Shown here: positions 9,683-55,495 of the stretch, one piece after another | Position numbering within the stretch: position 1 is the stretch's first letter | How the letters are laid out: every line of letters begins with the position of its first letter | Assembly (NCBI GenBank): GCA_051294375.1 | Contig: CM119264.1 | Coordinates: forward strand, 27,447,469-27,511,468 | Origin: Paraspadella gotoi | Taxonomy: Eukaryota; Animalia; Chaetognatha | Reading direction: 5' to 3' | Length of the DNA stretch: 64,000 nt | Translations under genes and position numbers: made by a program | Notes under the pieces: generated by a model | The model's input: only the letters and a program-made list of their open reading frames with translations | What the model was told of the DNA's origin: nothing | Database searches by the model: none

Positions 9683-9945
9683 ATTCTATGGTGGACTAAA
9701 ACCCACCAACCGTTCATCAGCGGCCATTGGTGCCGGAGGCAAGTCATTCGCCTCCCAACCCAAAGGTCCGGGGTTCTAGCCCGGTGGTCGTCTGGCAGTT
9801 TAGAGGGACGGGGCGCTTAACCCGCCTGTAACATGGTGTTACAGCCTGATCCGAAGCTCAGGGACTGCTTATATTGAACGGTTCTATCACTAACTCATAA
9901 CAATAATTACTGTCTCTTCAATTCTTCCCTTTTTTAATTTTTATG
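9683..9945 (+). mobile_element. tRNA-derived SINE-like element carrying a twister-like ribozyme
   Basis: A-box-like TGGTGCCGGAGG (~9728) and B box GGTTCTAGCCC (~9772). 15-bp direct repeat TTAAATAAAAATTTC at 9668-9682 and 9946-9960. Confidence 0.7.
9794..9869 (+). ncRNA. Candidate type-P5 twister ribozyme
   Basis: P5 GGCAGTT/GACTGCT; GAC-GG (9807-9811); T^AA at 9818-9820; GC; P3 CTGTAACA/TGTTACAG; P4 CCTGA/TCAGG closing loop TCCGAAGC. P2 is one base short (CCC vs GAGG). Confidence 0.75.
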
Positions 9946-11096
9946 TTAAATAAAAATTTCGCGATAATAACTGGACTATTTCACTTTACCCTGACCGTTT
10001 GATATGTAAATGGCTAAATACAAGAAAAAGAAAAAAAATTGCGAGCCCTTCAGACATATGGCTATCGGATTCCTGAATTCGAAGTTTATTGTAAAATCAC
10101 AACATATCTTAAATGCGTTGACATTGTATTGAAGTTGAGAAATCCCTTTATTATATAAAAATTGAGTCAAAAGTATTTTCCCGAGCGGACCAGTCCATTT
10201 GAAAAAGTCTTCCTCGATTTCTAAGAACGACGTAGACTCCTAATATAACGCTATTTCTTTTTAATTTTGAAAAAATATAAATGAAAAGTATAGAGTTATC
10301 GAAAAACTATTGAAAAACTTGAAAAACTATTGAAAAACTTGAATTGGTTTAGGCAATAGAATATAGCAAGACTTTAAAGTCAGAGTCTCAAACGGAATTG
10401 GGAAAAAATTATTTCCAAAGTTTTAGAGTTTATGACACTTCTTTTTCTGACTGGTGTTTACAATATAGAATTGACAAAATCATAATGGAATTAAACCTAT
10501 AAAAGGGTCGGCAATAAATTTGCTTTACTTTTCTATAAATATATTTTTAGCAGATTCGAAAAAACGAAAGTTTTTAATATTTTTACAACGAATTTTATTA
10601 CTAATTATTGGACATATTTCGACTCTTGTTTTGTTCGAGTCTTATGAACAATGAAAAGAGAGAAAATACACAAAAATATTTTTTTAATTCCTACAAAATA
10701 TAGTATATTTATTAATAAATTCTGAAAAGTGAAAACAATCATTTTAAAAAAAAATATCTTAAAATCAAAAAGTACTTTTATGACAAAAATAAAAAAATTC
10801 GTTTTAATATAATTGTGAGATTTTATTTTAGTCTGCTTCAACACGAGATGCCATAAGAAAAAAAACCTAGATGTGAAAAAACTTTGAAAGTAATCTTGGG
10901 TAACCATAGCCAATGAAATTTAAATTATAATGTATACAGCATTAAAATAGTTTTTCATGAGCATAGATTATGGTAGGGGTAGCCTTATTCAATGGGTGAG
11001 TCTAAAATTTAGAATGAGTACATGCTCAAACGAAATTCTTATACATTATGGCAACGGGAGTAGCCTGTGATACCCGGGGCGCGGGTATCTCACCAA

Positions 11097-11175
11097 CTGG
11101 CATAGGGCTGCGGACCCTCAGTGACCGCCTCCTGTCACTGGCATGTTTATACCGGCACCATCACATTTAAGCCAG
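11097..11175 (-). ncRNA. Candidate type-P5 twister ribozyme in the 3' LTR
   Basis: Minus strand CTGGC-TTAA-ATGT-GAT-GG-TGCCGGTA-T^AA-ACAT-GC-CAGTGAC..GTCACTG-AGGG-TCCGCAGC-CCT-AT-GCCAG. P5, P2, P3, P4 and both pseudoknots can form. Predicted cut between 11149 and 11148. Confidence 0.75.
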
Positions 11176-11189
11176 AACCGGGATACCCA

Positions 11190-11242
11190 GGGATTGAACC
11201 CGGACGCACGGATGGAATGAGATGATTTAGCCTGCTCAGCCA
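11190..11242 (-). promoter_or_regulatory. Type-2 Pol III promoter (A and B boxes) in the 3' LTR
   Basis: A box TGGCTGAGCAGG 11242-11231 and B box GGTTCAATCCC 11200-11190, with tRNA-like 30-nt spacing. Confidence 0.8.
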
Positions 11243-11298
11243 TTGAGACGAGGCTGAGGACGGACAGCAGTGAGGCAGCTTTAAGTCTTGCTGCCACA

Positions 11299-11311
11299 GG
11301 ATCCCCCCACC
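11299..11311 (-). other. Polypurine tract
   Basis: GGTGGGGGGATCC immediately precedes the TG of the 3' LTR on the minus strand. Confidence 0.75.
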
Positions 11312-11499
11312 AGACTTCTCCACAGGGGCCTCAATCCTGAGGAGATGTCTGAGAGAAGGTTTTGATCTCATTGCCATAGTGAGAGCGAGCGGGCGAGCGA
11401 GTCTGGAGCGTTACCAGAGAAGTAGGGCATAGGCGTGATATGCATACCCTAAGCGACGTAAGCGTGGGCGCACGGTGCGCAGCGGTTGCGTGTTCGAGA

Positions 11500-11512
11500 G
11501 TCGGGCTCACCA
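11500..11512 (-). other. Primer-binding site
   Basis: TGGTGAGCCCGAC starts 2 nt after the 5' LTR; TGG is complementary to the tRNA CCA end. It resembles a tRNA-Arg-type PBS (unverified). Confidence 0.7.
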
Positions 11513-11567
11513 CTTATGGCAACAGGAGGATAGCCTGTGATACCCGGGGCGCGGGGTATCTCACCAA

Positions 11568-11647
11568 CTGGCGTAGGGGCTGCGGACCCTCAGTGACCGC
11601 CTCCTGTCACTGGCATGTTTATACCGGCACCGTCACATTTAAGCCAG
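11568..11647 (-). ncRNA. Candidate type-P5 twister ribozyme in the 5' LTR
   Basis: Same architecture as 11097-11175, with GAC-GG and a full 4-bp P4 AGGG/CCCT. Predicted cut between 11621 and 11620. Confidence 0.78.
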
Positions 11648-11661
11648 AACCGGGATACCCA

Positions 11662-11714
11662 GGGATTGAACCCGGGACGCACGATGGAATGAGATGATTT
11701 AGCCTGCTCAGCCA
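11662..11714 (-). promoter_or_regulatory. Type-2 Pol III promoter (A and B boxes) in the 5' LTR
   Basis: A box TGGCTGAGCAGG 11714-11703 and B box GGTTCAATCCC 11672-11662. Confidence 0.8.
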
Positions 11715-12748
11715 TTGAGACGAGGCTGAGACGGACAGCAGTGAGGCAGCTTTAAGTCTTGCTGCCACAACATATTTATTTATAGATATGAAAGGCCAAA
11801 ATTTGTCTACACAAAGTATAATTATTTGTTAAATATTTTTATGATAATTGAGTCAAAAATTAAAAAACTATTAAAAATTGTTATCAGTAACATCTTTCGA
11901 TGATTTTATCAATTTTTATTTGTTTTTACTGAGAAAACGTAGTAATTTTAAAAAGCTATAATTATATTTCTTGTTTAATTTTTTATGCTCTATCAGAATT
12001 CTTCCAAAAATTTTAAGTTTCTAAAAAAAAACTTATAATGCAAAAAAGATAAGTGACATTTAATGTAGTAATCAAAACGTATAATGTAAATTTGTTTGAA
12101 AATGATTGCTTAAATATTTAGTCAAGAAAACGAAAAAAATTTTGCTAATAGTCAAAATTTTATATTATCTCCCTAATTATGGTATTAAAATAGTTTTTGT
12201 TAAAAATGCTTTTTTCTGAGGGTACTAGCCTATTTAAAATTATTATATTACTATATAGAAAAAGTTTTTTAATTTTTTTATTTATATATATATATATATA
12301 TATTTCTATATCATTTTTAAGTAAAATATAAAAGTCATCAGTTGGGAACCTATACCCTTCATGGATTTCGGCTCTTTAATCCCAATATTTCATATACGTA
12401 ATTATATCGTTCTCCAACCGAATTCAATCACGAAAATTATCAAACTGTATGTGCAAGGTGAGACAGAAATGGGAATCAATTTCAGATTGCAATAGTCATA
12501 ATTGACTCATTACTGAAGTGGTTTATTTCAATTGAGTAATTGATAGAATCAGAAAAATATTCGTTTCCATCAGCAAACTCCCCCCACTCCCCCCCCTCCC
12601 CCCCCTAAAGTTTGTTTTTGGTGACATGGTTTTTAGTCGGATCAGCTTATCAGCAGATTAACTTTGTCGGTTCGTCGGTCCCACCCCAAAATCTTGTCGG
12701 TAAATCCCTTTTACAGGGACTTCAATCTGGAGTGATACGAAAAAAACT

Positions 12749-12947
12749 TGTAAAATAATCGAAACATCTCCCGACAGCTAGCGTTCAGGGCTTTGGACTT
12801 GTAGTAAGCGCCCCAGGTAACTGGCGTGTTTATGCCGATACCATCACACTTTAAACCAGCGGGACCGTGAGGGGATTGAACCCGGAACTCACAGTTGGTG
12901 AACGAGTACTTAGCTGTCCAAGCCAATGGGAAGAGCTGTGTTTCACA
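12749..12947 (-). mobile_element. Solo LTR of a related subfamily (tRNA promoter + twister)
   Basis: Termini TGTGAAA...TTTTACA; flanks AAACT/AAGCT (4/5). A box 12925-12913, B box GGTTCAATCCC 12882-12872. Core is clearly similar to the 11-kb LTRs. Confidence 0.75.
12777..12860 (-). ncRNA. Candidate type-P5 twister ribozyme (partly decayed)
   Basis: P5 GCTGGT/GCTAGC; P2 GTGT/ACAC (compensatory relative to ATGT/ACAT); GAT-GG; T^AA at 12832-12830; GC; loop TCCAAAGC. Mismatches in P1, P3 and P4. Confidence 0.7.
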
Positions 12948-13035
12948 AAGCTATTCGGGAGGCGAATTTAGGATTCGCCACACTACTTGACTTTTTTCCC
13001 CAACTAATTTATCCTTCAAAATACGACGATTTTAA

Positions 13036-13538: not shown

Positions 13539-15455
13539 TCAATTTTTATCATGAGCAAGCAGAATGACTGAAGGAAATATCAAAAAAATTAGACATGGAA
13601 AGTCATAAAAACTTGTCCAATGTTTATCAACATAATTAATGTAATCATAAGAGCTAAGATTTAAAAGAAAGGAAATATGCTTGCATTTCATGTAAGGTCG
13701 ATCAATCTTGCAGCATTTAAGTGCAGCCGTAAACAGCCAAAAATTATCTCTGTCAATACGAAATTTATCTGTTTTTTTTTCTACCTGAAACTTCATCCAG
13801 GCCCAAACAAAACAATAAAAAATTAAAACTACAATAAAGTAAATGGAACATTTTAATTTAGAGATCATTTTTATTTTCATATAGCATAGACTTAAAAAAG
13901 GTAAAAATGCTAGAGTAAAGTAAAAAAAGAAAAGAGAGTTTAATTTAGCATAACCATAAAATAATAAATATCTGTCTTCATAATTATAACCCGGAATAGG
14001 TCCATTATAAAAACCATCACTTACGCACAATCCCTTAATAACCGATTGAATCTCTCCTTTTACACCAGGTCCACGAATCAACCAAAAGATCACCAAGGGC
14101 AGAAAGGCACTCACAATGACCAAAAATACAATTAAAGAGAGACAAATCTTTCGAGCAATCAACTTAAGCATCAGTCTCTGTACAGCTCTTGTGAAGAACA
14201 CACAAATGAATAATGGAAACCAATTAGCGACTATTTTACTAAAATTTACTAAGCTTGTTTTTTTGTCTGAATTGTAACCATAGTGAAATTGTATAAAATA
14301 TAAAAATACCATTATGCCGGTAAAACCAAAGAATTCCAACTTCAAAAGCCAATCCCGAAATTTGTTGTTATATAGGACAAAGATAGTGTTATAGAACAAT
14401 GAAATAATGACATCCAGAAAAACTAACAAAATCACTCTTTTAAAATTTGGATACACAAAAGGTTGATTTCCTAGCATTATCGTGAAGTAAAATGGATTTG
14501 TTGTCCGATATGTTAGATCGCTGGAATGCTTCTCGTTTTGAAGGGATTCCAATAATTGTTTCATAAACTTGCACCAATTTAAGTTGTGTTTTACTTTAAA
14601 GCATGTAATCGTTACCAGCATATCATAATTATTTCTAATCACCTCCGTGGTCTTTAAATTTAATTGAAACGTAAAAAAACTTTTGAGTCGGTTACCTCTA
14701 ATTGCTATTCCCCAGGAAAGACGACTTCTTAACCCAATTTTATGGTCATCGAAAGTCAAACGCGTAGCTAAGATCAGCAGGGAGTAAAAATTCTTGATCC
14801 ACCATTCAAACCAAGAGTTTGAAACGCCCTTTTGTATTGACGTAATTTGGCCATCGAAAAGAACCAATTGGCTTAAAAAACTGAACAGGAATTTAAATTC
14901 GGACCAAGTAAAGACTCGAATAATTAGAGGAACTAGGAAAAGGAGAAACAAATAAGACGTGTTCAATGCTTCAACGTATATGTAATAGAGAGTAACAGAT
15001 AGGCCCAGGGTTTCTTGAAGGACTCCAAATACAACCAAAAATATCCCTTTTGTCTTCAGCGGACGTTGACCCAAATTATTCCCCCTCAATTGTGCAGCAG
15101 CTTTGGTCACACTTAACATCGATACAACCACAGAGAAAATGGTCCAGTAAAAATCTATTTTCCACTGACAGACTATTTCGAAAGGTTTATTGGTAAATTT
15201 GCATTGACAAGTTTCCTTTAGGCCCACGATCGTTCCGTTGTCTATTGAAATGTACATGTTTCCCAAATTCTTCATTTTATCCCCGCCGCTAACATAGGGA
15301 TCATGGCCCAGTTCAAGTAAGTCTGGAATACATCTTTTATCATCCAACACTAAGGAATAGGCAATGACTCCAGTTTGAATCACCATTTGGACGTAAGATT
15401 CTAACAAAACGTGAAGGATGTTGATGCCGTATAATAGTTGAGACTTTTTGTTCAC
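13539..15455 (-). CDS. Main coding segment of a divergent XK-related (Xkr/CED-8 family) multipass membrane protein
   Basis: 638-codon open frame in AT-rich DNA with many hydrophobic segments. LLESYVQMVIQ resembles the XK-family LESxPQxxLQ motif and FSVVVSMLSV the following S-x3-S-x2-S helix. The 5' boundary is not a true start. Confidence 0.65.
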   Translation of the reverse strand: MNKKSQLLYGINILHVLLESYVQMVIQTGVIAYSLVLDDKRCIPDLLELGHDPYVSGGDKMKNLGNMYISIDNGTIVGLKETCQCKFTNKPFEIVCQWKIDFYWTIFSVVVSMLSVTKAAAQLRGNNLGQRPLKTKGIFLVVFGVLQETLGLSVTLYYIYVEALNTSYLFLLFLVPLIIRVFTWSEFKFLFSFLSQLVLFDGQITSIQKGVSNSWFEWWIKNFYSLLILATRLTFDDHKIGLRSRLSWGIAIRGNRLKSFFTFQLNLKTTEVIRNNYDMLVTITCFKVKHNLNWCKFMKQLLESLQNEKHSSDLTYRTTNPFYFTIMLGNQPFVYPNFKRVILLVFLDVIISLFYNTIFVLYNNKFRDWLLKLEFFGFTGIMVFLYFIQFHYGYNSDKKTSLVNFSKIVANWFPLFICVFFTRAVQRLMLKLIARKICLSLIVFLVIVSAFLPLVIFWLIRGPGVKGEIQSVIKGLCVSDGFYNGPIPGYNYEDRYLLFYGYAKLNSLFFFYFTLAFLPFLSLCYMKIKMISKLKCSIYFIVVLIFYCFVWAWMKFQVEKKTDKFRIDRDNFWLFTAALKCCKIDRPYMKCKHISFLLNLSSYDYINYVDKHWTSFYDFPCLIFLIFPSVILLAHDKN

Positions 15456-16018
15456 AGGGATAAATAATTTTTTTTAATTTCTTTTTGTCTTTGAGAATTT
15501 GATAAATATGAATAAAAATTATACTATTTTTATAAACAATAGTGTACATTACTGTACAATAATTATTTTTTTGTCTTTAGTAAAAAAAAAATTATCCCTG
15601 CCTTAAAACTTCTTGTGTGATCAGCATCTGAGCCTTTAATTACAGTCGCCAAAAATTAACTTCCAAAAAGATTTTTATTTATTTAAATTTGGCGAAAAGA
15701 TGCCATAAGATAGCAACAAGAGAATTATACTCAAATCTCAGGTCGTTTGCCTGTGATGGATATCTGGGTAAAATGATTTTGTGTTTTTACCTCAAACCTC
15801 TAGTCAATGGTGCCCAGTCAAAATTTATTATATTTTATAATATGATATTTATGATTACCCATCAGCAGTACTGATAAACAGCCAGACAGATAGAAAAATA
15901 TCAAATCAAGTCAGGGCTTGCCACGACTAATGAAACTGAACAACTTGAAAAGACTTGTCTTAAAATTAGTGTAAGTACAAAAATACAACAGCATTATTTT
16001 ATGTGGAATATTTTGCAA

Positions 16019-16336
16019 TCAAGTTATTTTTTGGCGACCATCATCCAAATACAAATCCATTGACAAAACCAGCGCTCCCAACCCAACCAAATGCAAAGAG
16101 ATTGTTATCAACTTTCTTATTTTTGTTTTCCAAACAATCGGAAAATGATCAGAATTTTTATAAATAATGAACAAACTAAAAGAAGATGATACAATGATGT
16201 AAAGGATAAGCGACGCCAAAAAAGCCCAACCAAAATAATTATTAGGCCCCAAACGGAAATGATCCCCCAGAGTCTTTAGATCTGTCCCTAGATCAAGCAG
16301 GTTAAGAAAATTGGCAAAAATAACCAGAGATGCCAT
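16019..16336 (-). CDS. N-terminal segment of the XK-related protein
   Basis: ATG at 16336, after a splice acceptor at 16361-16360. LLDLGTDL matches the XK TM1 D-x2-TD motif, followed by two hydrophobic helices. The link to the main ORF is interrupted by stops. Confidence 0.55.
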   Translation of the reverse strand: MASLVIFANFLNLLDLGTDLKTLGDHFRLGPNNYFGWAFLASLILYIIVSSSFSLFIIYKNSDHFPIVWKTKIRKLITISLHLVGLGALVLSMDLYLDDGRQKIT

Positions 16337-17833
16337 TTTGACCACAAGTACTCTTCCACCTGTACCAAAAAAAAAATAAATAGCTATTGCTGGGTATTGG
16401 TTTTAATTCAGGTCTGCTTAAACCAAACAGCATAAAATTAAATTAGTTAATCCTTAGAAATCAAAATGAAATTCAAGACTGATTGTATCATGTACATATT
16501 TGTTTCATTTGATTGCACCAAACAACATCAAAAATTATGCTCTTGCAAAATATTTAAAAATACTTTTAATACTTTCGTCAAGCATGTAGAGAAATATTGC
16601 AATAGGAGCCTAAAAAATCCTAGTCAGATAAATAAAATTAATAACAGTATTTTTACCAAAAATTTTGTTTTTGTTTAGCGGCATTGTAGAAAGACGCGAG
16701 CAGTCGGGTATTTTCTTGAATAGCTCCTTCAATAATGTTTTCTAAAGGGAGAAAGCACTTTTATTAAAATAAATAACGCACATCATTACCTATTTTGACA
16801 TTTTTTTAAAAAAATGTTGGTTTTACTATGCTATGCTAGTGAGAACAAACAATAGACCCCCCAAAATTTATCAACTGTTGTCGATATTTTTTTCACTTCA
16901 TATGTAATAGTAGCACAACAATTGTGCGTCGATCAGTTGATATGAGGAGGAAGCGAATATGATTTCATGTGATCTTGAGAAAACAAAATATTATAGCGAC
17001 ATTTTTTTAAATTTTATTTTATTTTTTTATGCTTTGCTGAGAAATACGGACAAAATATATATAAATTGGAAAAAATGTATAAAACGGTACATCATGTTTA
17101 TTTTTTTTACCATTTCCGTTTAATTTATACATTAATTATTTATCTTAATTTGAATCATCTAGCGAATGGACGAAAATTGTTGGGGGCAAATGTAAAAAGG
17201 TGAAAAACAGTTAGATTCTAACTTAACTTAAAAGGCAAGAGATTGAAAAAATTAAATGAGAAGGTATTATTCAAAAAGTTCCCCATTTCAGCCCAATCTT
17301 CTCTTTTCCTTTCGCTTCAAAAAAATTTGGCCTAATAACAACTAGAAAACAAAGACAACAACAACAACAAACGGCCGGGAAATTCGCGTCGAGAGAAACG
17401 ATGACGAAAATTACTAAGAAGTTGACTGTTGAGGAGGAGGAGGAGGAGGAAGAGGAGGAGGAAGAGGAGGAAGAGATGGAGAAGTGGATGAGGAGAAAGG
17501 GAGGAAAGGAGAGAGGAAAGGAGGAAAGGAAAGGGAGAGGAAAGAATAAATGAAAGAAATGGGAAGAGAGGTGGAGAGAGGAAAGAAAGGAGGATAAGCG
17601 GAGGAGGGAGTGAAGAAAAGAGGAAAGAACAGGATAAGAGGAGAGAGGGAAGAAAGAAAGAAAAAAAAGAGGAATTAGAGATTGAGGAGAGAGGAGAGAA
17701 AAGGAAGAAAGGAGGAGGAGATAGGGAGAGAAAAAAAAAGAGAAGAAGAGGAAAAGAGGAGTAATTGTGCAATAGTCTGATGAAAAGTAGACCAGAGTTG
17801 CAGTTATTGAATGAAGTAAGAGTGGGGAGGGGG

Positions 17834-30434: not shown

Positions 30435-33400
30435 CTAACATCTTCGAACTGTCAACGGCCCAAATTTAAGACGCCACCGCTCGCTGGCTTTAAAACTGTG
30501 GCTCGAGCTTTGGTGGAGCTTTGGTAGCCGGTGCTTGGTTAGCTTGTGCTTAGCGGAAGGTGATTATGAACGGGCCTCGCGATGCGGTAGTTGTTACTTA
30601 GTTAGCCGTGCTTTAGGTTGATCAGAGGTCAATGCTTGGGATGACCCTCATTTGAAGCTCAAAACCGTAAATCGCGTCGATGTTTAGGTGTCTTGCGCGA
30701 TTGGGACGGCCCGTCTTGCTTTTCTTGCTTTGGGATAAGTTTCTAGGTAGTTTTGAATGCTTGCCGAGGGTTGGTGGTCCGATGCTTGGTTTCGCTCTCA
30801 TCGACGCCCAAAATTCGTAAATCGCGTTCTTGGATTACAATCTTATCCGTCTCTGAGCTTCCGGACTGGGGCGCGACCCTCATAACCGGTCTTAGCGGGA
30901 AAAAAGCGAGGATGAGAAGTAAAGGGATGAGCAGAGAGGGATGAGAAGAGCGAGAGAGGAGGGAGAGAGAGAGGCGAGGGAGAGAGGAGGGATGAGAGAG
31001 AGCGAGAGAGAGAGGGAGCGTAGAGAGGGAGACGGGGGAAAGGAAAAAGAAGAAAGGTGGAGGAAGCGGAAGCAAGATTGAAAAGAAAAGGAGAAAAAAA
31101 AGCAAGGTATTAAGGAGAGAAGGTTTAGGTTCTTAACAAGAATTCAGTTTTTCTAGAGAGAGAGAGGAGAGAGAGAGAAGAGAAGATAAGAGAGAGCAGA
31201 GCAGAGAACGAGAGAGATACAGCGAGAGAGAGAGACGAGAGGAGAGAGATAGATGAGATAGATTAGATAGAGATAGAATAGATAGCAAATGAGCTAGATA
31301 GATAGATAGATAGAATATAGACGTAGAAGATATCAAATGGACAAAGGAAAAGTAGAAATGAAAAAGGAAAGGAATAAAAAAAAAAAAAGAAGTGAAAACA
31401 TGATGAAAGAGAAGAAAAAAAACAAACATAAAGAGAACACACACAATTATAGAAATTTGAACGAATTCAAAATTCAGACACTAGATATAAAAAATAAAAA
31501 AAATTTCGTACTCTTAAAATGATATTGAGGATTCAAATAGAAGAGAGAGAGAGAGAGAGACGGGAAGGAAGAGAGAGTGAGGAGAGAAGACGGGAGATGG
31601 GAGAGGAGATGGAAGAGGAGAGAGGAGAGAGAGAGAGAGAGAGAGATCGGAGAACGAGAGCGGGATGTCTTGATTCATCTCCAGCAGATTGCGGCGTTCC
31701 CTTTGTCCCGCCCCCCTCGCCCTCCCCGGCTTTGGATTTGTTAACGCGCTATCATCCGGACGGAGAATCGAAAGAAGGGAAATGGATTAATTTAAATGAG
31801 AGAGAGCAACAGAGACTTTGTTAGAGGGAGAAGAGAGCGAGAGGAGAGAGTGAGAGATAGAAGGAGAGAGACGAAGAGAGCAGAAGAGAGAGAGAGAGAG
31901 AGAGAGGAAAGAGAGTGAGAGAGAGAGAAGAGAAGAGAAGAGAGATGAGAAGAGAGAAGGTCGTCCTCCGTTCTCTATTTTCATGATCTGAATGAAACTG
32001 AGCAAAGAGTAAAACAAACGGCATTTACAACGAAGAGGAGCAATCTATGGCGCTTGGCGTTTCCTAAACGGCATGTCACTCTTTTCGCGATTCTCCAGTG
32101 AGACTCGTTCTTTCCGAGCAAATTCCGTTCTGTAAGTGTAGCTACGACGAAACGACGACGACCGACGACGACGACGATTGCCCGTTGGATTATTTTCGAT
32201 GAGGACTTTAGCTCTCTTTTCAAAAGGCGCCCCATTTTGCTCCCTAATCCCAGAAATTAATTTTAATTTTAAATATTTATAAGACAGTTTAATTATTTAC
32301 AACAACAATTTATTATTAAAAGACAAACATGTTTTTGGTGCCAAAAATGTTTTTGTTGAATATATTACAAAATAATTAAACTGTCTTATAATCTACAAAC
32401 ACATAATTAAATATTAAGCATTATTTATCAGTATAAAAAGGTGAATAACAGACTAAATCCTTAATCTAATCTCTAACACTTAATTTCCTAAATCTAATCC
32501 TTAAACCTTATTTGTCCTTAATTGTAAACCTTAATTAATAACCATTAACCATTAACCTAATTAGTAATCATTAACCCCAATTTTTAACCTAAACGTTCAA
32601 ACATAAAATTAAATATTGATCGTTATTTAGACAAAATGAGACGTTCTGGAAATAAGGCCTAGATTACTTTTTAAATAAAAATATGAACGATAATATTAAA
32701 TTATATTAATATTCGACAAAAACGTCAGCTGAGGATTTCTTTTTAAATAAAAATATTCGAAATCATTAAATATATAATTATCGACAAAATCTCAGCTGAG
32801 GCGAAAAAATGCAAACCTCGCAGGCGGCCTGTTATACACAACACTGCGTACATAAATGATTCGCAAAGAAATATGAATATTAACTTAATATTATTTTAAT
32901 ATTAAATATTTTGTATTTTAGGATAATTATATGAAAAATATATTGACAAAATAAATGTTCATTTTTTTAATTTTATAATATCATATATATGAGTATTTAG
33001 TGAATATAATTTAAGACATTATTTCTATTAAAATTTTAAAAAAATATTAATACTAACTAATATCAAAATTTGTGTAAAAATTATTTAAATTTATTCCATT
33101 TCAAAATTTTAATAAACGCTAAAATTAATCATAATGATGTGCCAAAATTAAACATTCTTTTCCGAATAAGCTTACGAAGAGTGAGAAAAAGAGAAAAAGA
33201 AAAACTAAGAGGCTTCTTCCCTTTTCTCCTCGACTCATTTGTCAGGAATCAACTCACAAAAAGAAAAAAAAAAAAAGAAAAAGCAGAGAGAAAAATGAAT
33301 CGACAAATCTCATTGTTATATAACGGGAAAAGAGGAAAAAAAAATTGAAAGAAAAAGGAGATAAATTTACGGTGGAAAGGTAAAACAATGAAACGACGCG

Positions 33401-33746
33401 AATCAGAAACCCGCGATTGAAAAAGGAAGATGACGATGCTGGAATGGATAACAAAGATAACAAGGAAGTTTAATCCAGAAAATATTGTAAACAAACAAAC
33501 TTTCTCCATCGAAAAATTTGAAAAAAAAACACGACGAAGCCATATTTTTTAATTAAAAAAAAAAAAAAAAAACTCGGAGAAAAAGTTTAATTATTCGCAT
33601 TTCGAAAAATTGAATATCGTTGTGACAAACAAATTTCTTTTGATTGCGAGGAAATTAAAATGATTTCACACTGCACTTACAATAGTTGAGCGTCTTAAAC
33701 TGAAAATTCTCTCCTCTCCTCCTTCTCTCTCTCTCTCTCTCTCTCT

Positions 33747-33799
<53 letters not shown>

Positions 33800-34520
33800 T
33801 CCACATTGAAAATGCTTGATTATCATACATACATCGATAGATATAAATACATTATTTTAATCCAAAAGGAAAACTTGCTTCGCTTTGACTAAGCGATCTT
33901 CTTCTTGATGATGATTGAAGATCTTCACTGGATTTCTTCTCTGAGAAGCCGAACATTTTTCACCATAAGCGAAATCAAGCTCTCACTCTTTCCGAGTTCA
34001 CGAAAGGTCGCAACATTGCGAAGTTAATTAAACCGTACACCGAGGAAACAATTCGCTCGACATCAGACAAATTGTATAGAATAACTTTTACTGGTATAAA
34101 CAAAAAACATTTCAGTCGTATGCCACGAATTATTTCACAATTTTTATTTCAAAACGGCCCGTCGCCAATTAAGGCGAAAGCAATTGAACCACATAAAAGC
34201 CAGTTGGCTGGCCCTGACTGAATTGCTCTCACGACTCACATCAACTAAACGGCGCATTTCAGTCCGCTCACAGCCTTCGAGTCGATTATATCCGAGCAAT
34301 CCAGCGCCATAAACGTGGCACTAGTAGAGCGAAGCGCAACCCTACTTAACGCGGCATCGAGTCGAGACCGCAGCGGCTATAAAGAGTAAGTACGAACAAC
34401 TATCGAAGCCACCGACCTGTTTCCCGCCATTTTCTAAGAGCGCCTCGCGTTGCCAAAGGTGAACGTCGCGCCGCTTCTGGATTTTACGCGACGCCCCCTT
34501 AGGTATGGCGACGTGCGTTG
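30435..34520. repeat. Copy A of a triplicated segment (noisy; ends at an N gap)
   Basis: Colinear with 34546-~38350 and, from ~31270, with 45862-~48880. Differences are mainly 1-2 nt indels. Confidence 0.9.
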
Positions 34521-34545: not shown

Positions 34546-35512
34546 GCTAACATCTTTCGAACGTCAACGGCCAAATTAAGACGCCACCGCCTCGCTGTAA
34601 AACTGTGCTCGATGCTTGGTTGGAGCTTGGTAGCCGGTGCTTGGTAGCTTGTGCTTAGCGGAAGGTGATTTATGAACGGGCCTCGATGGTAGTTACTTAG
34701 TAGCCGTTGCTTGGTGATCAGAGGTCAATGCTTGGATGACCCTCATTGAAGCTCAAAACCGTAAATCGGTCGATGTTTAGTGTCTGGCGATTGGTGGACG
34801 GCGTCTTGCTTTTTTCTTGCTTTGGGATAAGTTCTAGGTAGTTGAATGCTTGCCGAGGGGTGGTCGATGCTTGGTTCGCTCTCATCGACGCCCAAAATCG
34901 TAAATCGGTCTTGGATTAAATCTTATCCGTCTCTGCTCCGACTGGGCGCGACCTCTAACCGTCTTAGCGGAAAAAGGGAGAGAGAAAGGGAGAGAGAGAG
35001 CAAGAGACGGAGCGAGAGACGGCGGGGGAGAGAGGGGGGGAGAGAGAGGGAGGAGAGAGGAGGAGAGAGGAGCGAAGAGGAACAAAGAACGGGAAAGAAA
35101 GTAGAGGTGGAGAAGCGGAAGAAGTTGAAGAAAAAGGAGAAAAACAAGCAGAGGATTAGGAGAAGGTTTAGGTCTATAAACAACGCCAATTTAGTTTTTT
35201 CTAGAGAGAGAGAGAGAAGAGGGAGAGAGAGAAGAGAGAGAAGAGAGAGATAGATAGAGAAAGAGATGAAAGACATAGATACGTAGATCGATAGATAGAT
35301 AGATATGATTAATATATAGATAACGAAAGGAAAGGAAGTAGAATGAAGATAGAGAGGATAGTAAATAGAAAAGAAGAAACAGAAATAAACAACATAAAGA
35401 GACACCAAATATGAAATTGAACGAATTCAACATAATTCAGAACGACGCCTATAAAAATAAAAAATCCTGTAAACTCTAAATATATTTGAGGGATTCCAAA
35501 TAGGAGAGAGAG

Positions 35513-35579
<67 letters not shown>

Positions 35580-35746
35580 AGAGAACGAGAGCGGGAGTGT
35601 CTTGTACATCTAGCAGTCGGCTGTCCCTTGTCCCGCCCCCTCTCCCGGGCTTCTTGTTTAACGCGCTATCATCGGACAGAATGAAAGAAAGGAAATGGAT
35701 AAGATTAAATGAGAGAAGAGCAACAGAGCTTTGGTTTATAGGCAGG

Positions 35747-35779
<33 letters not shown>

Positions 35780-38700
35780 AGAGAGAGAGCGGGGAGAGGA
35801 GAGAGAGGAGAGAGAGAGAGAAGAAGAGAGAGAGGAGAGAGAGAGAGGGAGGAGAAGAGAGAGGGTCGTCGTCCGTTCTCTATTTCATGAATCTGAATGA
35901 AAGGAGCAAAGAGAAACAACGCATACACGAGAGGTGAGCAATCTATGGCGCTTGGCGTTCTAACGGCGTCACCTCTTTTCGCGATTCTCCAGTGAAGACT
36001 CGTTCTTCCGAGCTAATCCGTTCTGTAAGTGTAGCACGACGACGACGACGCGACGACCGACGACCGCACGAATGCCCGTTGATTATTTTCGAATGAGGAC
36101 TTTAGCTCTCTTTTTCAAAAAGCGCCCTCTTTCTGCTCCTAATCCAGAAATAATTTTAAATTTAATATTATAAGACAGTTTAAATTATTTACAACACAAT
36201 TTAATTATTAAAAGACAAACCCATGTTTTGTGCCAAAATGTTTTGTGAATTATTACAAAATAATTAAACTGTCTTATAATCTACAAAACACATAATTTAA
36301 ATAATTAAGCATTATTTATCAGTATAAAAGGTGATAGACAGACTAAATCCTTAATCTAAATCCTAACACTAATTCTAAAATTCAATCCTTAACCCTTATT
36401 TGTCCTATATTAGTAAACCTTAAATTAATAACATTAACGCATTACTAATTAAGTAAATCATTAACCCCATTTAACCTAAACTTCAAACCATAAAAATTAA
36501 ATATTGTGCGTATTTAGGACAATAAATGAGACGTTCTGGAAAATAAGGCCTAGATTACTTTTTAAAATAAGAAATATTTACGAAAATATTAAAATATATA
36601 ATATCGACAAAACTCAGGCTGAAGATTTCCTTTTAAAATTAAAAATATTTCGAAATATTATATATTAATATGCGACAAAACTCAGCTTGAGGCGAAAAAA
36701 GCGAAAACCTCGCAGGCGCCTGTTATCACAACCACTGGTACATAAATGATCGAAAGAAATATTTGGATTATTAACTAATATATTTTAATATTAATATTTT
36801 TATTTTAGGATAACTTATAGAAAAAAATATATGACAAAATAAATGTCATTTTTTAATTTATAATAATATATATAGAGTATTTAGTGAATATAATTTAAGA
36901 CATATTTCTATAAAATTTAAAAAAATAATTAATCTAATTACAAAATTTGTGAAAAATTTTTAAATTTATTCCATTTCAAAAAATTTAAATGAAACGCTAA
37001 AATTAAATCAATAATGATGGAAATAAACATTCTTTTCGGGATAAGGCTAACGAACAGAGTGAGAATAAGAAAAAAGAACAAACTAAGAGGCCTTCTTCCC
37101 TTTTCTCCTCGACTCATTGTGTTCAGGAATCAACTCACAAAGAATAAAAAAAAACAAGAGAGGAGAAATGGAATCGCAAAATCTCATTGTATAACGAGAA
37201 AAGGGAAAAGAAAATGAGAAAGGGGATAAATTACGGGTGAAGTGAAAAACAATGAACGGACGGAATCAGAAACCCGCCGCTGGAAAAGGAAGAATGACGA
37301 TTGCCCTGAGTGTGGATAACAAGATAACAAAGGAAGTTTAAATCCCAGAAAAATCTTATGTTAAAACAAACCACTTCCTCCATCGAAAAAACTTGAACAA
37401 AAAACGACGAGCCAATTTTTTTCAATTAAGAAAAAAAAAAAAAAACTCGGAGAAAAATTAATATTCGATTTTCGAAATGAAATATCGTTACAAACAAATT
37501 TCTTTTGATTGCGAGAATTAAAATATTTCACACTGACTTAACAATATTGGAGCGTGCTTAACCATGAAATTCCTCTCTCTTTGCTCTTCTCTCTCTCTTC
37601 TCTCTCTCCTCTCTCTCTCTCTTCTCGTTCTCTCTCTCTCCTCCTCGTCCCCAACATGAAAATCTTGATATCATACATACATCATAGATATAATACATTA
37701 TTTAATCCAAAAAAGAAAACCTTTTCGCTTTGACTAAACGATCCTCTTTCTGATGATGAATGAATCTTCACTGGAATTTCTGTCTGCGAGAAGCGACATT
37801 TCACCATAAGCGAAAATCAAAGCTCTCACTCTTTCCGATTCACGAAAGTCGCCAATTGCGAATAATTAAACGTACACCGAGGAAAAGACAATATTTCGCT
37901 CGACCAGATCAGACAAATGTATAGAATAACTTTTACTGGTATAGAAACAAAAAAATCATTCCAAGTCTATGCACCGAATATTTCAACATTTTATTCAATG
38001 ACGTTAACCGTCGCCAATAAGGCGAAAGCAATGACACATAAGATGCAGTGGCTTGGGCCCTGACTGAATGTCTACGACTACAACTCAACTAAACAGGACA
38101 TGATTTCATGCCGCTCAAGCCTCGCGACGATAGTGCCCGAGAATCACGCCATTAACGTGCACTAGTAGAGCGAAAGGCATCCTACTTTCAAGGTGCAATC
38201 GAGTCGGAGACCCCGAGGCTATAAAGAGTAAGTACGAACAACTATCGAAGCACCGACGTCTTTTGGCGCCGCCATTTTTTAAAGAGCGGCCTCGGTTCCA
38301 AGGTGAACGGTCGCAGCCGGCTCTGGAGTTAGCGGACACGCCCGCTACCGTGTTGGCGCTGCTTGGCTGCGTTGGCTCGTTGATGCAACGTTATGCTTGG
38401 CGTTGTGGGTTCGCTATTTCACTTTCACTCACTTCTAGATGTGCAGTTACGACTTTTTTTCTTTGGCCCCCAAGATCGTGCCTCGCTATTCCTCTCCTGA
38501 TTGCCATAGTCGAATTTTTGTCCGTTTCTTGATCTTGGTCTAAGATCTCTGCGTTCTCCTGTCGTCTAAAATTGGCCATCGTATGCGTTTCACTTTAGCC
38601 ACGCAAAACCGTGCATACACTCGCTATTTTGCGTGTGCTGCGCTGCAGTCAAATCCGGCAAGCTCGGTTCCCTTTACGGTTGACGAGATGTTTTTTCTTA

Positions 38701-41635
38701 CTTTTATTCAAGAATCAGCGAGAAATATTTGTTTTCTGTAATAAAAAGTCTTCACAAAGGAATTCGTGTTTCATTTTAAAGATTGTTTTTTTTCTTCGTT
38801 AAAACTTTCTCGCAGTGAATTATGTCGGAATTTCGGGTTTTGTGTGGAAAAAAATCAGTCGAAACAAAACAGAAAATTAAGAACAACCAACAACAACAAC
38901 AAGCGGAAAAAGAACGAAAACCAAAACCTAATCTCCCGGTCTGCGCCACTCACGCGCGCCGCAGCCGCAGCCTGCCGGACACTGGCCGCCGCGCAGCCGC
39001 CAGGCACGCCGTACACTTTGCGTCGCCGTTCCGACCGGACGTCCGACTCCGCACTTGAAATGGGAGGGCTCTCAACGTGACCCGAGGGCGACCCCTGCCA
39101 TGGGTGGAAGTGGCAGAGGTCGAATCCCATCTGCATGGTGAGGGCTCCTGGCAGGGGTCACTCGACCCGGGAAAAGGAAGACGATCAGCGAAATACAATC
39201 ACGAGTGCGCGGAAGACGAGGCGAAGCGACCCCCGTGGTCATCTGCTTCCATAATACTAATCAGAAATTTAAGGAAAAATAATCACATTTCGGCTCCCAT
39301 TCTTACGGACGAATGGATTAGAAAGCGATCGCGAACGTGAGCAGACAGAAACGAAAACAGAAACAACACAAAGACAACGTACCAGTCCTTGGCGCATCAT
39401 CAGCTTATAGTTTCTGAGATGTCCGGAAGTTTTTCAGGCCGCGCTGCGACGTGAGAACAGGGTTTACGGCGTGGTGCGTATAAGCAAAGACGCTACGTGG
39501 CTGTGGACAAGGATCGGCCCCCTCTGCGAGACGTATTACAAAGGACGCCAGTGCCCGGTGGCCTGAAAACTTATTCACGCCGGGCCACAGGTGGCGTAAG
39601 CGATGATGTGGCGCTCAATAGAAATAGAGGAATGACTTGAGCAGATCTGTATCTTCATCCTTGCTCTCAAACAACGAGCGACGTTCTCGTTCTCGCATTC
39701 TCGTCGTCATATCGGAGAGGAGAGAGAAGAAGCGAGAGGGAAGAGAGGATATTAAAGAGATAAGTAAGTCTGTCCAACAGGCTCAACAGCGCATCTCGCC
39801 CATGGACGGGAAGAAAGTAATGTTCCCAGTAAAGTGTGAGTCGAAGGAGGTGAGTTGAAACTTTAGACTGATGAAAATAGGAAAAGAATCATTTATTTGG
39901 TAAACGAGGAATCAGGGTGTGGGGAAGAATTTTTGGTCTCCTGGATAAATATTTAATTTGAGAGACATCTATTCAAAGTATCGTTAGGTTAATCAAATAT
40001 TTTTTTTACTGTTCATTATTATGTTTATTCTAATTAAAAAGAAACAGACTGCAACGTTTGGTCCTGATAAAATTATGTTTAATTTGCAGAGAATATATTC
40101 AGTTTGCCAAGGTTGTTTTGGTTAATCGAATGGATTTTTATTGTTCATTATATCATTTATCTACATTAAGAGAAACGACGATCAATTTTACAAATAGGGG
40201 AAATATTGAAAAAACCATAAATATCTTATTGAAATCACCTGATATGAAATAAAATATCACCCCACCCGTCTTGATAGGCCTGATGCGGGCTTAATGAGCT
40301 GCACCTAATTACATAAGAAATAGAATTAATCTAAGTTCGTTGAGCTAAGACGCTTAATTGCTGAAGGGCAAATTGTTCCCATGGTTCGTTCCGCCTTGTC
40401 AGAGTTGTCTAACCCGGATGCGTCCCACCGATAGCAAGCCGACCAGAGTCGTGGATCAGTGTGCCGGAAGTAGTCATCAGCGCAATCTAAGTGTGGGGGT
40501 ATATGTATCTAACTGTCAAGAGGATGCTGATCTCCCTAAGAGGAGGCATGGCGGTCCCCCTCAGAAGAGGCCATGGGCGTCTCCCGTCGTCCGTTCCACG
40601 TAAGATTCACTCTGGGTTTTCGCGATTTGGAGAAGTTGTTGAACTTTAATCCCCTACCGAAAAGTTAACGTCTTATTCTGACTGTCCGTCTGAAAAACAA
40701 GAGCATTTAAAATACTTTGTCGATTTTGGGAGTTGGGTAACCTTGTGTCGAGTTGACAACAGCAAAAGTCTGAGCCAAATATTCTCTATCTCTCTCTCTC
40801 TCTTCTCTCTTCTCTCTCTCTCTCTCTCCTCTCTCCTCTCCTTCTCTCATCTCTCTCTCTCTCTACTCTCTCTCTTCTCTCTCTTTTTCTCTCTCCATAA
40901 TATTCGAAGAACAACAATAAAAAAGTCCGACTGAATGTAGGAGCGATGGAATGACCTCGAGATTGGCCAAGGCCCCGGCGGCTGCGGCCTGCGACTGCGG
41001 CCGGTCCGGCGTCGGCCCTTGCTCCCTTTCGAGTCACATTAGCGATGGTTAACGTGTTTTCTCAGATCTGACGTTGACACGCTAAAAGGATCGCGGGAGA
41101 CGCCGGGGCCGAGAGAGACGGTGGGCGTGGCCCATATTTTTTGGTGGGAAAGGGCGGGGGGGGGGCAAAGGAGAAGACATTCTAGACAAGTAACCGAGAA
41201 ACAACATACGGAGAAATTTCGGCAAGGCGCATGGAAATCCATGGAGAGAGCATGCTGAGAGGCATGGATTGATTGGAATTAGAGTGGGCGATTAAATCTG
41301 GAAATAAAACAGGAACATGAGAAATACAAATCGGAAAACCTTTTATCGCATGTATCTATTTTTAGAAGCGAATTATTCCGCTGCAACTGGCGCAGATGGT
41401 TAACGAAGCGTGATTTGGGGGCGGGGGGGGGGTTGCAATATGCACATACATAACTCGTTTGAAACGAAATGGGAAACAGACGAAAATGCCATCAGTTTTG
41501 TTTAAACTGAAATATTAATGAGTTTCGTCTCCGTCGCTCGTGTGCTTCGTTAAATATTTCAGGTCTCAATTTCGTTCCGACGAAGCTAATATTTGAGGAG
41601 AGAGAGAGAGAAAGAGAGGAGAGAGAAGAGAGGAG

Positions 41636-41689
<54 letters not shown>

Positions 41690-44086
41690 GGAGAGGGAAA
41701 GAAAGAGATTTATGAGAGATGTGAGAAATGATAAGGGCAAATTTTTTAATCTTTCATTTCTTACTTTCAATCGGTTATTATTTAGGTGTTCGTTTTTATG
41801 CAATTTTTTAATTATTCATTAGCTACTTTTATATTATTATAATTATCTTGACTATCTTCCTTTCTAAATATATCTTTCCCTTCCTTCTTCCAAACTTCTT
41901 TTCTCTCTTTCTTTCTCCTTCCTTCCTTCCTTCCTTCCTTCCTTCCTTCTTCTTTTCTTCCTTCCTTCATTTCCTTCGCTTTTCTGTACTAATTCCGAAA
42001 CAAAAATTAAAAAATAACACTTTCATCATTGGCTGAGATCAAAGATATGTTTTTATTACGAGACATATTTCTATAAGGCAGCTACGTGAGTGCGGATTCG
42101 ATGTTAATGTGATCGTCAAAATACAGAATGTTAAGAGTGAATTTACAAAGACGTCACCAAGCGAATCTTTTTTCTGACATCAAGCTCGTGGTAGAAAAAA
42201 GTCTTCATAAATTATACTGTAAACGCGAAAAAGCTTGGTTAATTGTTAACAAAAAAGAAATAGGCAAATAGCTGGTTGTTTCTTTCTTTTTTTTATTCTT
42301 ATCATTCGTCTTACCGTAAGGCACTTTCGGGCATTGGTCGTTTTACTAATTCAATTTTTTTCTCATTGATTTAATAAAAACAGAAAAATAAATTAAAGAA
42401 ACTAAGAATTAAGGTTCCCGATGGTCCGATGACCGGTGACGAGGCAATCTTCGTGAGCGTGGCGTCAGCGTCACGTTGGATTGGCGGCTCCCGAGGTGGC
42501 GCTGGGTGAGACGCGTCGGCGTTGGACAATCCAGTTGATAGAGGCCAAAATGATGCGGACGAATAATGACGAGCCCGACCACGGACTGCGGGGAAAAAAA
42601 ATTGTTAAATTATTCCTTTAATTATTGGTTGTTTATGATTATCGATTTATCAATTTTGTGAGTATATAAATCTTACAGTGTATTATCCATTATTTCTTCA
42701 ACAAAAATTAACCACGATCAAATTTTAAAGACCGACTGTCAGAAATTCATGCGTCATGTAAACAGTGAACGCTTGCAAATTGTTACTTCCAAAATTTTGG
42801 GATTTAATTTTGGATATTTGAACGGTAAGATCTGGAACCTACGACAACCCCAACAACGCGACAACAAAATATAACAATAACTTGGTAATAAAAAAAAACC
42901 CACAACAGATGCGATCAGAGAGCTGATCAAAGCTCTTGGGCGCTCAACGTCGCCGACCGGTAACGAAATCCCAGACAAATTATATACGGAGCGAAATTAT
43001 ATTTCGTCTCTTCGACGGAGCGAAAAAACAAAAGAGGATTTTTTTTGGAGGAGGAAAATATAGAAAGAGGAGAAGGGAAAAAGGAGAAGGAAAAGGAAAA
43101 GAGAAGAAAAAGGAGGAAGAGAAAGAAAAAGGAAAGGAAAAAAAGGAAGGAAGGGGAAAGGAAAAGGGAAGAAAAAAGGAAATAGAGAAGAAAAAAGGAG
43201 ATAGAAAAAGAGAAAGGAAAGGAAAGGACATAGAAAAAGAGAACAACAAAGAAAAGAAGAGAGAGAAATCGAAAAGGGGAAAAAGAATAGGTAAAGAAAA
43301 AAAAAATATTTGGAGTCCCAGGGAGAAAGTGAGGGCAGAAGAAATAAAAATTAAGGAGGAAATTGGAGAAGAAAGAAGGAAAGAGGAAATGTACCGTAGT
43401 CTTTAGGTCGAGACAGAAAACTAAGAAAAAAAAAGAAAAGTAAAAGAGAGAGAAAACGGGAAATCGAGTTGAAGGGGAAAACAAGATCGAAAGTAAAAAA
43501 GGAGAAAAATTTGAATTTCGATGTAAGAATGAGGAAAAAAAGGGAAGATGCGCCTGAGGGATACAAATCTCGAAGTTTATTGGAAAAATCTTTTTAAAAA
43601 AGAAAAGAAGGAAGAAAAAAGAAAAAAAAAGAACAAAAAGAAAAGGAAAAAAAGAAAAGAGAGGAGGAAAAAATATAAACAAAAGAACGAGAGGAAGAAG
43701 AAAGGAAAAAATAAGAATTCGCTTCAGTGACCGATTATAGAAGTTTTATCATTTAAAAAAAATCAGTGAGAGAATGAATTCTCTATTTTTTTTTTCGCGG
43801 ATCAAAATTCGTTTTTTTTCATTCACATACGACTGTATTATGGAATGATTAGGCGTCGAAAAAAAGTTAATTTGAGAAACCTAGGAATCAATCAAGTCAG
43901 AGTGAAGTATAATAACTTAAAATACGAGTTGAAAGAAATTACTTTATTACAATTCTCTTAATCATCTTTTATAATTTTCTCTCAATGACGAGGGAAATCT
44001 TATAATACTATTTAGATTTTTTGTTTTACTTGGATATATACAAGTCGTGATTTTTACTCCTGCTTAGATTAATGCTCATTACTTAT
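34546..44086. repeat. Copy B of the triplicated segment (noisy; starts at an N gap)
   Basis: Colinear with copy A and with 45862-54340 up to CATTACTTAT (44086 = 54340). Confidence 0.9.
42471..42585 (-). pseudogene. Frameshifted duplicate of VAMP exon 3 (probably artefactual)
   Basis: Aligns to 52705-52820 with several single-base indels. No duplicate of exons 1-2. Confidence 0.7.
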
Positions 44087-45861: not shown

Positions 45862-45894
<33 letters not shown>

Positions 45895-46103
45895 TAGATA
45901 TCAAAGGAAAGGAAAAGTAGAAATGAAAAAGGAAAGGAATAAAAAGAAAAGAAGGAAAACATGAGTAAATAGAAAAAAACATAACATAAAAGAGACCACC
46001 AATTATAGAAATTGAACGAATTCAAAAATTCAGACACTAGATATAAAAATAAAAAAATTCTGTAACTCTAAAATATATTGAGGGATTCAAAATAGAGAGA
46101 GAC

Positions 46104-46178
<75 letters not shown>

Positions 46179-46342
46179 AGAGAGAACGAGAGCGGGAGTT
46201 GTCTTGTCATCTCAGCAGTCGGCTGTCCCTTGTCCGCCCCCCCTCTCCCGGCTTTGATTTGTTAACGCGCTATCATCCGGACAGAATCGAAAGAAGGAAA
46301 TGGATAATTAAATGAGAGAAAGCAACAGAGACTTTGTTTAGC

Positions 46343-46381
<39 letters not shown>

Positions 46382-46622
46382 AGAGGAGAGAGAGAGAGAA
46401 GAGAGAGAGAGGAAAGGAGAGAGAGAGAGAGAGAGGGCAGAGAGAGAGAGTCGTCCTCCGTTCTCTATTTTCATGATCTGAATGAAAGGAGCAAAGAGAA
46501 ACAACGCATACAACGAAGAGGAGCAATCTATGGCGCTTGGCGTTCCTAACGGCGTCACCTCTTTTCGCGATTCTCCAGTGAGACTCGTTCTTTCCGAGCA
46601 ATTCCGTTCTGTAAGTGTAGCT

Positions 46623-46653
<31 letters not shown>

Positions 46654-46684
46654 TGCCCGTTGATTATTTTCGATGAGGACTTTA

Positions 46685-48122: not shown

Positions 48123-48205
<83 letters not shown>

Positions 48206-50795: not shown

Positions 50796-50863
50796 AGAGA
50801 GGCATGGCGATCTCCCTAAGAGAGGCATGGCGGTCCCCCTCAGAGAGGCATGGCGATCTCCCT
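50796..50863. repeat. 23-bp tandem repeat AGAGAGGCATGGCGATCTCCCT, 3 copies
   Basis: Units start at 50796, 50819 and 50842. Confidence 0.85.

Positions 50864-51053: not shown

Positions 51054-51091
<38 letters not shown>

Positions 51092-51794: not shown

Positions 51795-51933
<139 letters not shown>

Positions 51934-55372: not shown

Positions 55373-55495
<123 letters not shown>

Follow-up and report, generated by a model that had tools for sequence, protein, structure and literature searches.

A miniature LTR retrotransposon of Paraspadella gotoi with tRNA-type boxes and a putative twister ribozyme in each terminal repeat

The window analysed here is a stretch of 64,000 nucleotides (nt) of the chaetognath Paraspadella gotoi (GenBank assembly GCA_051294375.1, contig CM119264.1, positions 27,447,469 to 27,511,468, forward strand), and all coordinates count from its first letter. 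The minus strand carries an element of 723 bp (11047-11769), called F1 in the following, which has two long terminal repeats (LTRs), a primer binding site (PBS), a polypurine tract (PPT) and a target site duplication (TSD). Based on the arrangement of these parts we are confident that F1 is to be read as a miniature LTR retrotransposon which is complete and which carries tRNA-type boxes together with a twister fold. In the direction of its sense strand F1 comprises:

11770..11773 (minus): upstream copy of the TSD, ATGT
11515..11769 (minus): 5' LTR, 255 bp
11703..11714 (minus): degenerate tRNA-type A box of the 5' LTR
11662..11672 (minus): B box GGTTCAATCCC of the 5' LTR, inside a T-arm-like hairpin
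11568..11647 (minus): type-P5 twister fold 1, in the 5' LTR, predicted cut U11621/A11620
11622..11629 (minus): 8-nt self-complementary P1 segment of twister 1, forming a 2-bp hairpin or an 8-bp duplex with the other LTR
11500..11512 (minus): tRNA-Trp-like PBS, starting with TGG two bases past the 5' LTR
11299..11514 (minus): 216-bp internal region without Pfam match, which in the predicted fold pairs with the U5/PBS end
11302..11311 (minus): PPT, ending 3 nt short of the 3' LTR
11047..11298 (minus): 3' LTR, 252 bp
11231..11242 (minus): degenerate tRNA-type A box of the 3' LTR
11190..11200 (minus): B box GGTTCAATCCC of the 3' LTR
11097..11175 (minus): type-P5 twister fold 2, in the 3' LTR, predicted cut U11149/A11148; T1 with one G.U pair, P4 with a 1-nt deletion
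11043..11046 (minus): downstream copy of the TSD, ATGT

Both LTRs are 96.1% identical, and the TSD of 4 bp reads ATGT on the minus strand and ACAT on the plus strand. The termini are imperfect inverted repeats (TGTGGC...GCCATA), meaning that the LTRs are bounded by TG...TA and not by TG...CA. Pfam was run on 100 of the 152 candidate open reading frames (ORFs) of the window and on two further ORFs, and none of the three ORFs of the element, all among the 100, gave a match. The original prediction of a complete mini-retrotransposon with LTRs of about 253 bp, PBS, PPT, an ACAT duplication and no protein coding is confirmed by these data. As in Helenus, F1 has paired LTRs around a short non-coding interior and a total length below about 1.3 kb.

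The PBS agrees in 12 of 13 bases with the tRNA-Trp site printed in Fig. S2 of PMC10886601. In most copies of the element, position 11502 carries a different letter (147,490 of a depth of 148,262 in sequencing run X1), leaving 11 of 13 bases in agreement; because of this drop, both the primer and the helper of F1 are uncertain.

Two observations concern the fold of the interior. Within 11299-11530 (minus), the internal region repeats the LTR end and the start of the PBS in inverted orientation. In the predicted fold the PPT pairs with the U5 end, which brings both LTR junctions together.

Regarding the putative promoter, tRNA-type A and B boxes had been predicted for each LTR, and this holds for the B box and for one half of the A box. 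The GGTTC motif of tRNA-derived B boxes is present in the LTRs of F1, and the A box contains the TRGCY half named in PMC10886601 and has AGG where YGG is expected. The A box is therefore degenerate, and a strict A-box pattern matched none of the four LTR families described below. According to the same paper the TRGCY/YGG and GGTTC motifs are required only of "most" Helenus LTRs. ARAGORN reports no tRNA in the window, and the LTRs of F1 contain no cloverleaf.

F1 is present in many copies, roughly hundreds to thousands. In run X1 the flanking contigs have depths of 27.7 and 33.9, compared with a summed depth of about 67,000-73,000 over the internal bins of F1, and run X9 holds one 231-bp internal contig without substitutions at a depth of 897. 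Because summed depth is no copy number, these values are read only as many. The comparison with the contigs covers 40 of 199 differences and 22 of 1251 loose ends, and neither the ends of F1 nor its ribozyme positions are among these.

The twister fold and related LTR families

Behind each B box of F1 the sequence can fold in the order P5, P2', GA, T1 strand, 8-nt P1 segment, U^AA, P2, GC, 7-bp P3, P4 with loop UCCGCAGC, and P5'. This order and the core letters are those of the Rfam Twister-P5 consensus line (RF02684), and the parts of a circularly permuted twister, as proposed earlier, lie at their predicted places in both LTRs, with predicted cuts at 11621/11620 and 11149/11148. Both pseudoknots can form. 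Details of the fold beyond the consensus line follow in part what we take to be the usual twister structure. With the type-P5 twister of Rfam (RF02684, clan CL00120) the folds of the window share P2', GA, the T1 strand, P1, UAA, P2, GC and P4 with loop UCNNNAGC; they differ by a self-complementary P1 segment of 6-8 nt instead of about 20, a P3 of 7 bp, in F1 a C at the A.A position, and scores far below gathering.

Three further LTR families could be identified in the window:

12765..12982 (minus): F2, 3'-truncated related LTR with A and B boxes, found by blastn; its twister, at 12858-12779, has the canonical AA in L4
58661..58901 (plus): F3, solo LTR with ATAT on both sides and a decayed twister at 58770-58847, found by blastn
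9687..9899 (plus): F4, LTR-like unit TATG...CATA with an A-like box, a B box and a twister at 9796-9867, found with a covariance model

Four LTR families of one lineage, each with boxes followed by a twister fold, occur within 64 kb. They align along the whole LTR with a mean column identity of 66%. F2 keeps the same left boundary, 12982, next to many unlike flanks (in three runs 64, 31 and 11 contigs, with an agreement of 0.44-0.45, among the loose ends mentioned above). The ATAT duplication of F3 sits in AT-rich flanks, and for F4 no TSD was recognised. By eye, a 9-bp inverted repeat brackets the tRNA-plus-twister unit of F4. Another repeat of high depth at 12614-12743 adjoins the truncated LTR of F2.

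The stronger part of the argument for the twister comes from comparing these families. Over four twisters, both partners are substituted in 11 of 27 pairs, and none of 500 shuffles reaches the observed values. The T1 pseudoknot reads CGG/CCG, UGG/CCG, UGG/CCA and CCG/CGG; it is paired everywhere and two of its three pairs are compensated. A covariance model built from the four finds a fifth, untrained one, that of F4, at E=1.6e-6, the next match having E=2. Over five sequences, in an alignment fitted to the model, 13 of the 22 nested pairs change on both sides. Compensatory changes are located in P2, P3, P4, P5 and the pseudoknot T1, and the letters of the catalytic site (UAA, and GA before T1) are unchanged in all four twisters and are also present in F4. 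In F2 the copy in the window is unpaired at two positions where most copies would pair, at 12839 in P1 (45,604 of 46,600 depth, X1) and at 12799 in P4 (6,954 of 7,233 depth). The proposal that one element unites a terminal-repeat retrotransposon in miniature (TRIM), tRNA-type boxes and a ribozyme holds, with covariation from the three further families added to it. A twister descriptor that includes both pseudoknots, written after F1 and F2 had been seen and leaving the CA/AA position free, has three matches in the window, compared with 16 in 1274 window shuffles and 7 in 367,441 LTR shuffles.

Several results weigh against a functional twister. The check proposed originally, a search of both LTRs with the Rfam twister-P5 model, returned no match at threshold: no twister reaches the gathering score in the window, none is reported for 10800-12000, and none for F4. 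The best scores are a partial twister-P1 match on a 106-base stretch (E=1.7, 13.6 bits, gathering 67.2) and a twister-P5 match on F2 (E=8.4, 10.7 bits, gathering 37.6). These misses are likely due to P1, which has 6-8 nt here and about 20 in the Rfam model. The isolated domain is no more stable than shuffles (z -0.48 and 0.00), and it favours another fold by 6.5 kcal/mol (-26.0 vs -19.5) when pseudoknots are ignored. T2 is broken in one of the five copies, namely in F3, which has also lost half of P2 and has a compensated T1. Finally, the covariation was read from five sequences of a single genome with a structure derived from F1, and relatedness alone can be enough to beat shuffles of the kind used.

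Some of these deviations are tolerated in other twisters. As a caveat it had been noted that loop L4 of F1 has CA in place of AA; this is largely answered, since an A-to-C change at the trans A.A pair of natural twisters is tolerated, the variants cleaving no differently from controls (PMC11662667). In the same study neither G.U pairs in the pseudoknots nor P1 defects lowered cleavage. The four positions at which the Osa-1-4 twister tolerated no single change (PMC5113685) are intact in F1, presuming that our numbering matches the published one. P1 was reported to be dispensable in twister (PMC5113685; PMC11662667). We consider it probable that the twister of the F1 lineage is an active ribozyme family cleaving at U^A. 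It may already be among the about 2600 twisters tested in PMC11662667, there without the context of the element.

Rfam detects no hammerhead in the F1 region or elsewhere in the window. Two other Rfam matches on 10800-12000, to c-di-GMP-II and U7, were judged to be due to chance.

Relation to Helenus, retrozymes and other ribozyme-bearing repeats

Judged by its sequence, F1 agrees with Helenus/TRIMp3 in the features that a sequence can show, and in its construction it resembles an LTR retrozyme of plants. With Helenus (Kojima 2024, PMC10886601) it shares the short non-coding TRIM structure, A and B boxes in both LTRs, a PBS, a PPT and the animal-type TSD of 4 bp, and its 723 bp fall inside the length range of 311-1263 bp. 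A Trp-like PBS is common to F1, Helenus-2_SyJa and Gypsy-32_NVi (PMC10886601). The difference is the twister behind the B box. In the Helenus paper the word "twister" does not occur and "ribozyme" occurs once, in the title of a reference. Inspection by eye of the Helenus consensus sequences (supplement parts 1 and 5-9 of 11) revealed neither a twister nor a similar LTR, and six L4 motifs searched in the whole consensus file gave four matches, none of them in LTRs, in a search that misses motifs split over line ends. Pol III (RNA polymerase III) transcription is unproven for Helenus itself (PMC10886601).

Plant LTR retrozymes (Cervera et al. 2016, PMC4918200) resemble F1 in being non-autonomous, in carrying a ribozyme in each LTR, a PBS, a PPT and a 4-bp TSD, in the GC-rich unit between the cuts and in the presumed Gypsy helper. 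They differ in having a type III hammerhead where F1 has a twister, a Met PBS where F1 has a Trp-like one, and a unit of 600-1000 nt, compared with 472 nt; furthermore, F1 has tRNA-type boxes in its LTRs and an animal host. The circles of the plant elements have been demonstrated in vivo (PMC4918200); that of F1 is predicted. With a twister in place of the type III hammerhead, F1 is not a retrozyme in the strict sense, even if it is built like one.

Other animal repeats use a ribozyme to process retroelement RNA, as proposed for F1: the T-variant twisters of Perere-3 (PMC8501958), the metazoan non-LTR retrozymes (PMC7229834) and the Schistosoma hammerhead repeats (PMC6765202), the latter being non-LTR repeats that join a Pol III promoter to a hammerhead. 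Unlike F1, none of these animal systems has LTRs with PBS and PPT, and metazoan ribozyme repeats are stated to lack PBS, PPT and LTRs (PMC7229834). LTR retrozymes are described as primarily plant elements (preprint 10.64898/2026.07.22.740005), and retroelement twisters have been reported for long interspersed elements (LINEs) of the RTE type (PMC8501958). We found no description of an LTR element with a twister, or of an animal LTR retrozyme, in a literature search that lay outside Repbase, Dfam and most subscription papers.

In the supplementary sequences of PMC10886601 (DataS1) we noticed by eye that the LTRs of Helenus-2_SyJa and Helenus-2_SyUm, from Synergus gall wasps, appear to carry a complete type III hammerhead directly behind the tRNA boxes. 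It has a GUC site, a core of CUGAUGA and GAAAC, three stems and complementary (kissing) loops of 12 nt, and the element has a Trp PBS. The paper does not mention a hammerhead in these two families. Synergus Helenus-2 is a second candidate for an animal LTR retrozyme.

In papers up to 2026 retrozymes fall into two groups, LTR elements of plants with type III hammerheads and animal non-LTR elements with type I hammerheads, a division which an animal LTR element with PBS, PPT and twisters breaks. F1 further suggests that the circle route of LTR retrotransposition is open to any self-cleaving ribozyme, would give eukaryotic twisters a second job beside that at the 5' end of RTE-type LINEs, and points to ribozymes missed by Rfam inside already catalogued TRIMs.

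Pattern scans for F1-like relatives returned 0, 44 and 2 loci in viral contigs and 0 and 40 loci in metagenome contigs. None of these passed the twister descriptor (0 of 44 and 0 of 42), and blastn with the LTR found nothing in all 86. Since these collections hold little eukaryote DNA, the blank says little. Two weak covariance-model matches among the 86 pattern-selected loci (E=0.0018 and 0.21) were rejected because their pairs are broken, and the only locus with a direct repeat (L068) looks by eye like a bacterial duplication of a tRNA plus a small gene.

Possible replication routes of F1

We lean towards the view that F1 works as an animal LTR retrozyme, in which a 472-nt unit would be excised by twisters from a Pol III transcript, circularised and copied back to DNA. 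Pol III would likely initiate shortly before the A box of the 5' LTR and, since the sense strand has no T4 run within the element (the first one, at 11007, lies outside), read through both LTRs. The twister would then cleave at U^A. It could do so as a monomer, in which P1 has 2 bp, or with about equal likelihood as a strand-swapped double twister with an 8-bp P1 formed between the LTRs. Cuts at both sites would release the unit of 472 nt for circularisation; RtcB circularises the RNA of animal retrozymes in vitro (PMC7229834). The unit has 57.6% GC, and its circular fold has a z of -2.6, with none of 100 shuffles as stable. Cutting at both sites removes the terminal repeat (R) needed for strand transfer, and for this reason a circular template, as proposed for plant retrozymes (PMC4918200), is assumed. 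A Trp-like tRNA would prime at the PBS, and the reverse transcriptase (RT) of a Gypsy-type helper would run round the circle and rebuild both LTRs, after which the helper integrase would insert the DNA with a 4-bp TSD. Animal Helenus elements are thought to use Gypsy helpers (PMC10886601). For the circle of F1, a hairpin spanning the cut site was considered and discarded, as by eye it is not conserved in F2-F4.

The double-twister version draws on the P1 segment. P1 is self-complementary at 8 of 8 positions in F1, with a duplex energy of -10.9 kcal/mol, and at 6 of 6 in F4, in which hairpin formation would require a loop of 2 nt; the helix has 2 bp as a hairpin and 6-8 bp between two copies. 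On a transcript with both LTRs the strand-swapped double twister is 13.7 kcal/mol lower than two monomers (-243.3 vs -229.6, nested helices only). In this swapped model the half acting on the 5' LTR corresponds to an ordinary type-P1 twister, whose P5 loop is the internal region. Cutting would be restricted to full-length transcripts: if P1 forms only between two LTRs, only full-length RNA is cut, and a circle, containing just one half-partner, would be unable to cleave itself a second time. Such a dimer-gated twister, if true, would be a natural way to keep a circle made by a ribozyme stable. Axolotl hammerheads with a weak helix and a palindromic tetraloop cleave better as dimers (PMC7229834). 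We found no description of a dimeric natural twister in literature that excluded most subscription papers.

Other points speak against this circle route and its dimeric variant. In the window copies of F2 and F3 only 6 of 8 positions of P1 are self-complementary (by our own count the majority letter of F2 raises this to 8 of 8), and a tetraloop is self-complementary by chance in about 14% of cases. The support from the palindrome is modest because of this chance of about 0.14 and because the families are related. The unconstrained fold of the two-LTR transcript (-256.0) forms the helices of only the outer swapped ribozyme, which cuts the 3' LTR, and leaves the inner one mispaired, in an energy model that ignores both pseudoknots. 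No autonomous helper was found in the window, as none of the 102 ORFs scanned matches RT, integrase or gag.

A wider reading would be that LTR retrozymes exist in animals as well: TRIMs driven by Pol III would have gained a ribozyme behind the tRNA boxes at least twice, as a twister here and as a type III hammerhead in the two gall-wasp Helenus families, and the twister of F1 would be a strand-swapped double ribozyme with P1 formed only between the LTRs. We offer this reading tentatively, and as a whole it is less likely than not.

The strongest alternative also assumes an active twister, one that substitutes for a Pol III terminator by making the 3' end of the transcript. The cut would fall only in the 3' LTR, and the linear RNA, with terminal repeats that reach from the start site to the cut site (about 105 nt), would use Cassandra-like strand transfer and form no circle. 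The transcripts of Cassandra start and end inside the small-RNA units of its LTRs (PMC10886601). None of the four LTR families has a T4 run, whereas many published Helenus LTRs have, by eye in the supplement of PMC10886601, a T run directly behind the B box, and the unconstrained fold forms the nested helices of just the ribozyme that cuts the 3' LTR. That fold, however, disregards both pseudoknots, and in plants, elements with this layout do produce circles in vivo (PMC4918200). Moreover, the two twisters are nearly identical, and a self-sufficient one should cut the 5' LTR too and remove R. We regard a role restricted to 3'-end formation as unlikely, yet as the most serious competitor of the circle.

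Less weight is given to the possibility that the twister is a non-functional passenger, which arrived with a unit resembling a short interspersed element (SINE) inserted in an ancestral LTR, and that F1 moves as a plain Helenus TRIM. A SINE insertion was proposed by Kojima as the origin of such LTRs (PMC10886601), and Rfam scores below threshold, a very short P1, an alternative fold of lowest energy and the broken T2 and P2 of F3 would all fit such a passenger. Against this stand the compensatory changes in P2, P3, P4, P5 and T1 together with the invariant catalytic letters, over four families that share a mean column identity of 66%, and the majority letters that pair where the window copy of F2 does not; we consider it quite improbable. 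A third alternative, that F1 has no true LTRs and its repeats represent Penelope-like pseudo-LTRs or else a tandem SINE or non-LTR retrozyme, is hardly credible: ribozymes of animal repeats do usually reside in such structures (PMC7229834; 10.64898/2026.07.22.740005), the ends are TG...TA rather than TG...CA and F4 is without TSD, but F1 has PBS, PPT, inverted termini and a 4-bp TSD, the solo repeat F3 shows a 4-bp duplication, the left end of F2 is fixed against many flanks, and some published Helenus LTRs end in TA too (PMC10886601).

Other features of the window

An intronless ORF of 644 amino acids (13539-15473, minus) encodes a hydrophobic protein with no Pfam match and no homolog found. 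An ORF upstream of it (16022-16402, minus) has a weak XK-related Pfam match (E=1.4e-4). Together with the synaptobrevin match given below, it points to a likely animal host. Positions 30435-54340 contain large diverged segmental repeats, with 35284-44086 and 45865-54340 at 85% and 30435-34484 and 34547-38330 at 80% identity, as well as many CT/GA microsatellites and 943 N. The exons of a synaptobrevin/VAMP gene lie at about 55200-55804 (minus; Pfam E=1.4e-8), and a repetitive ORF of 404 amino acids rich in Arg, Glu and Ser, with no Pfam match, is located at 60764-61978 (plus).

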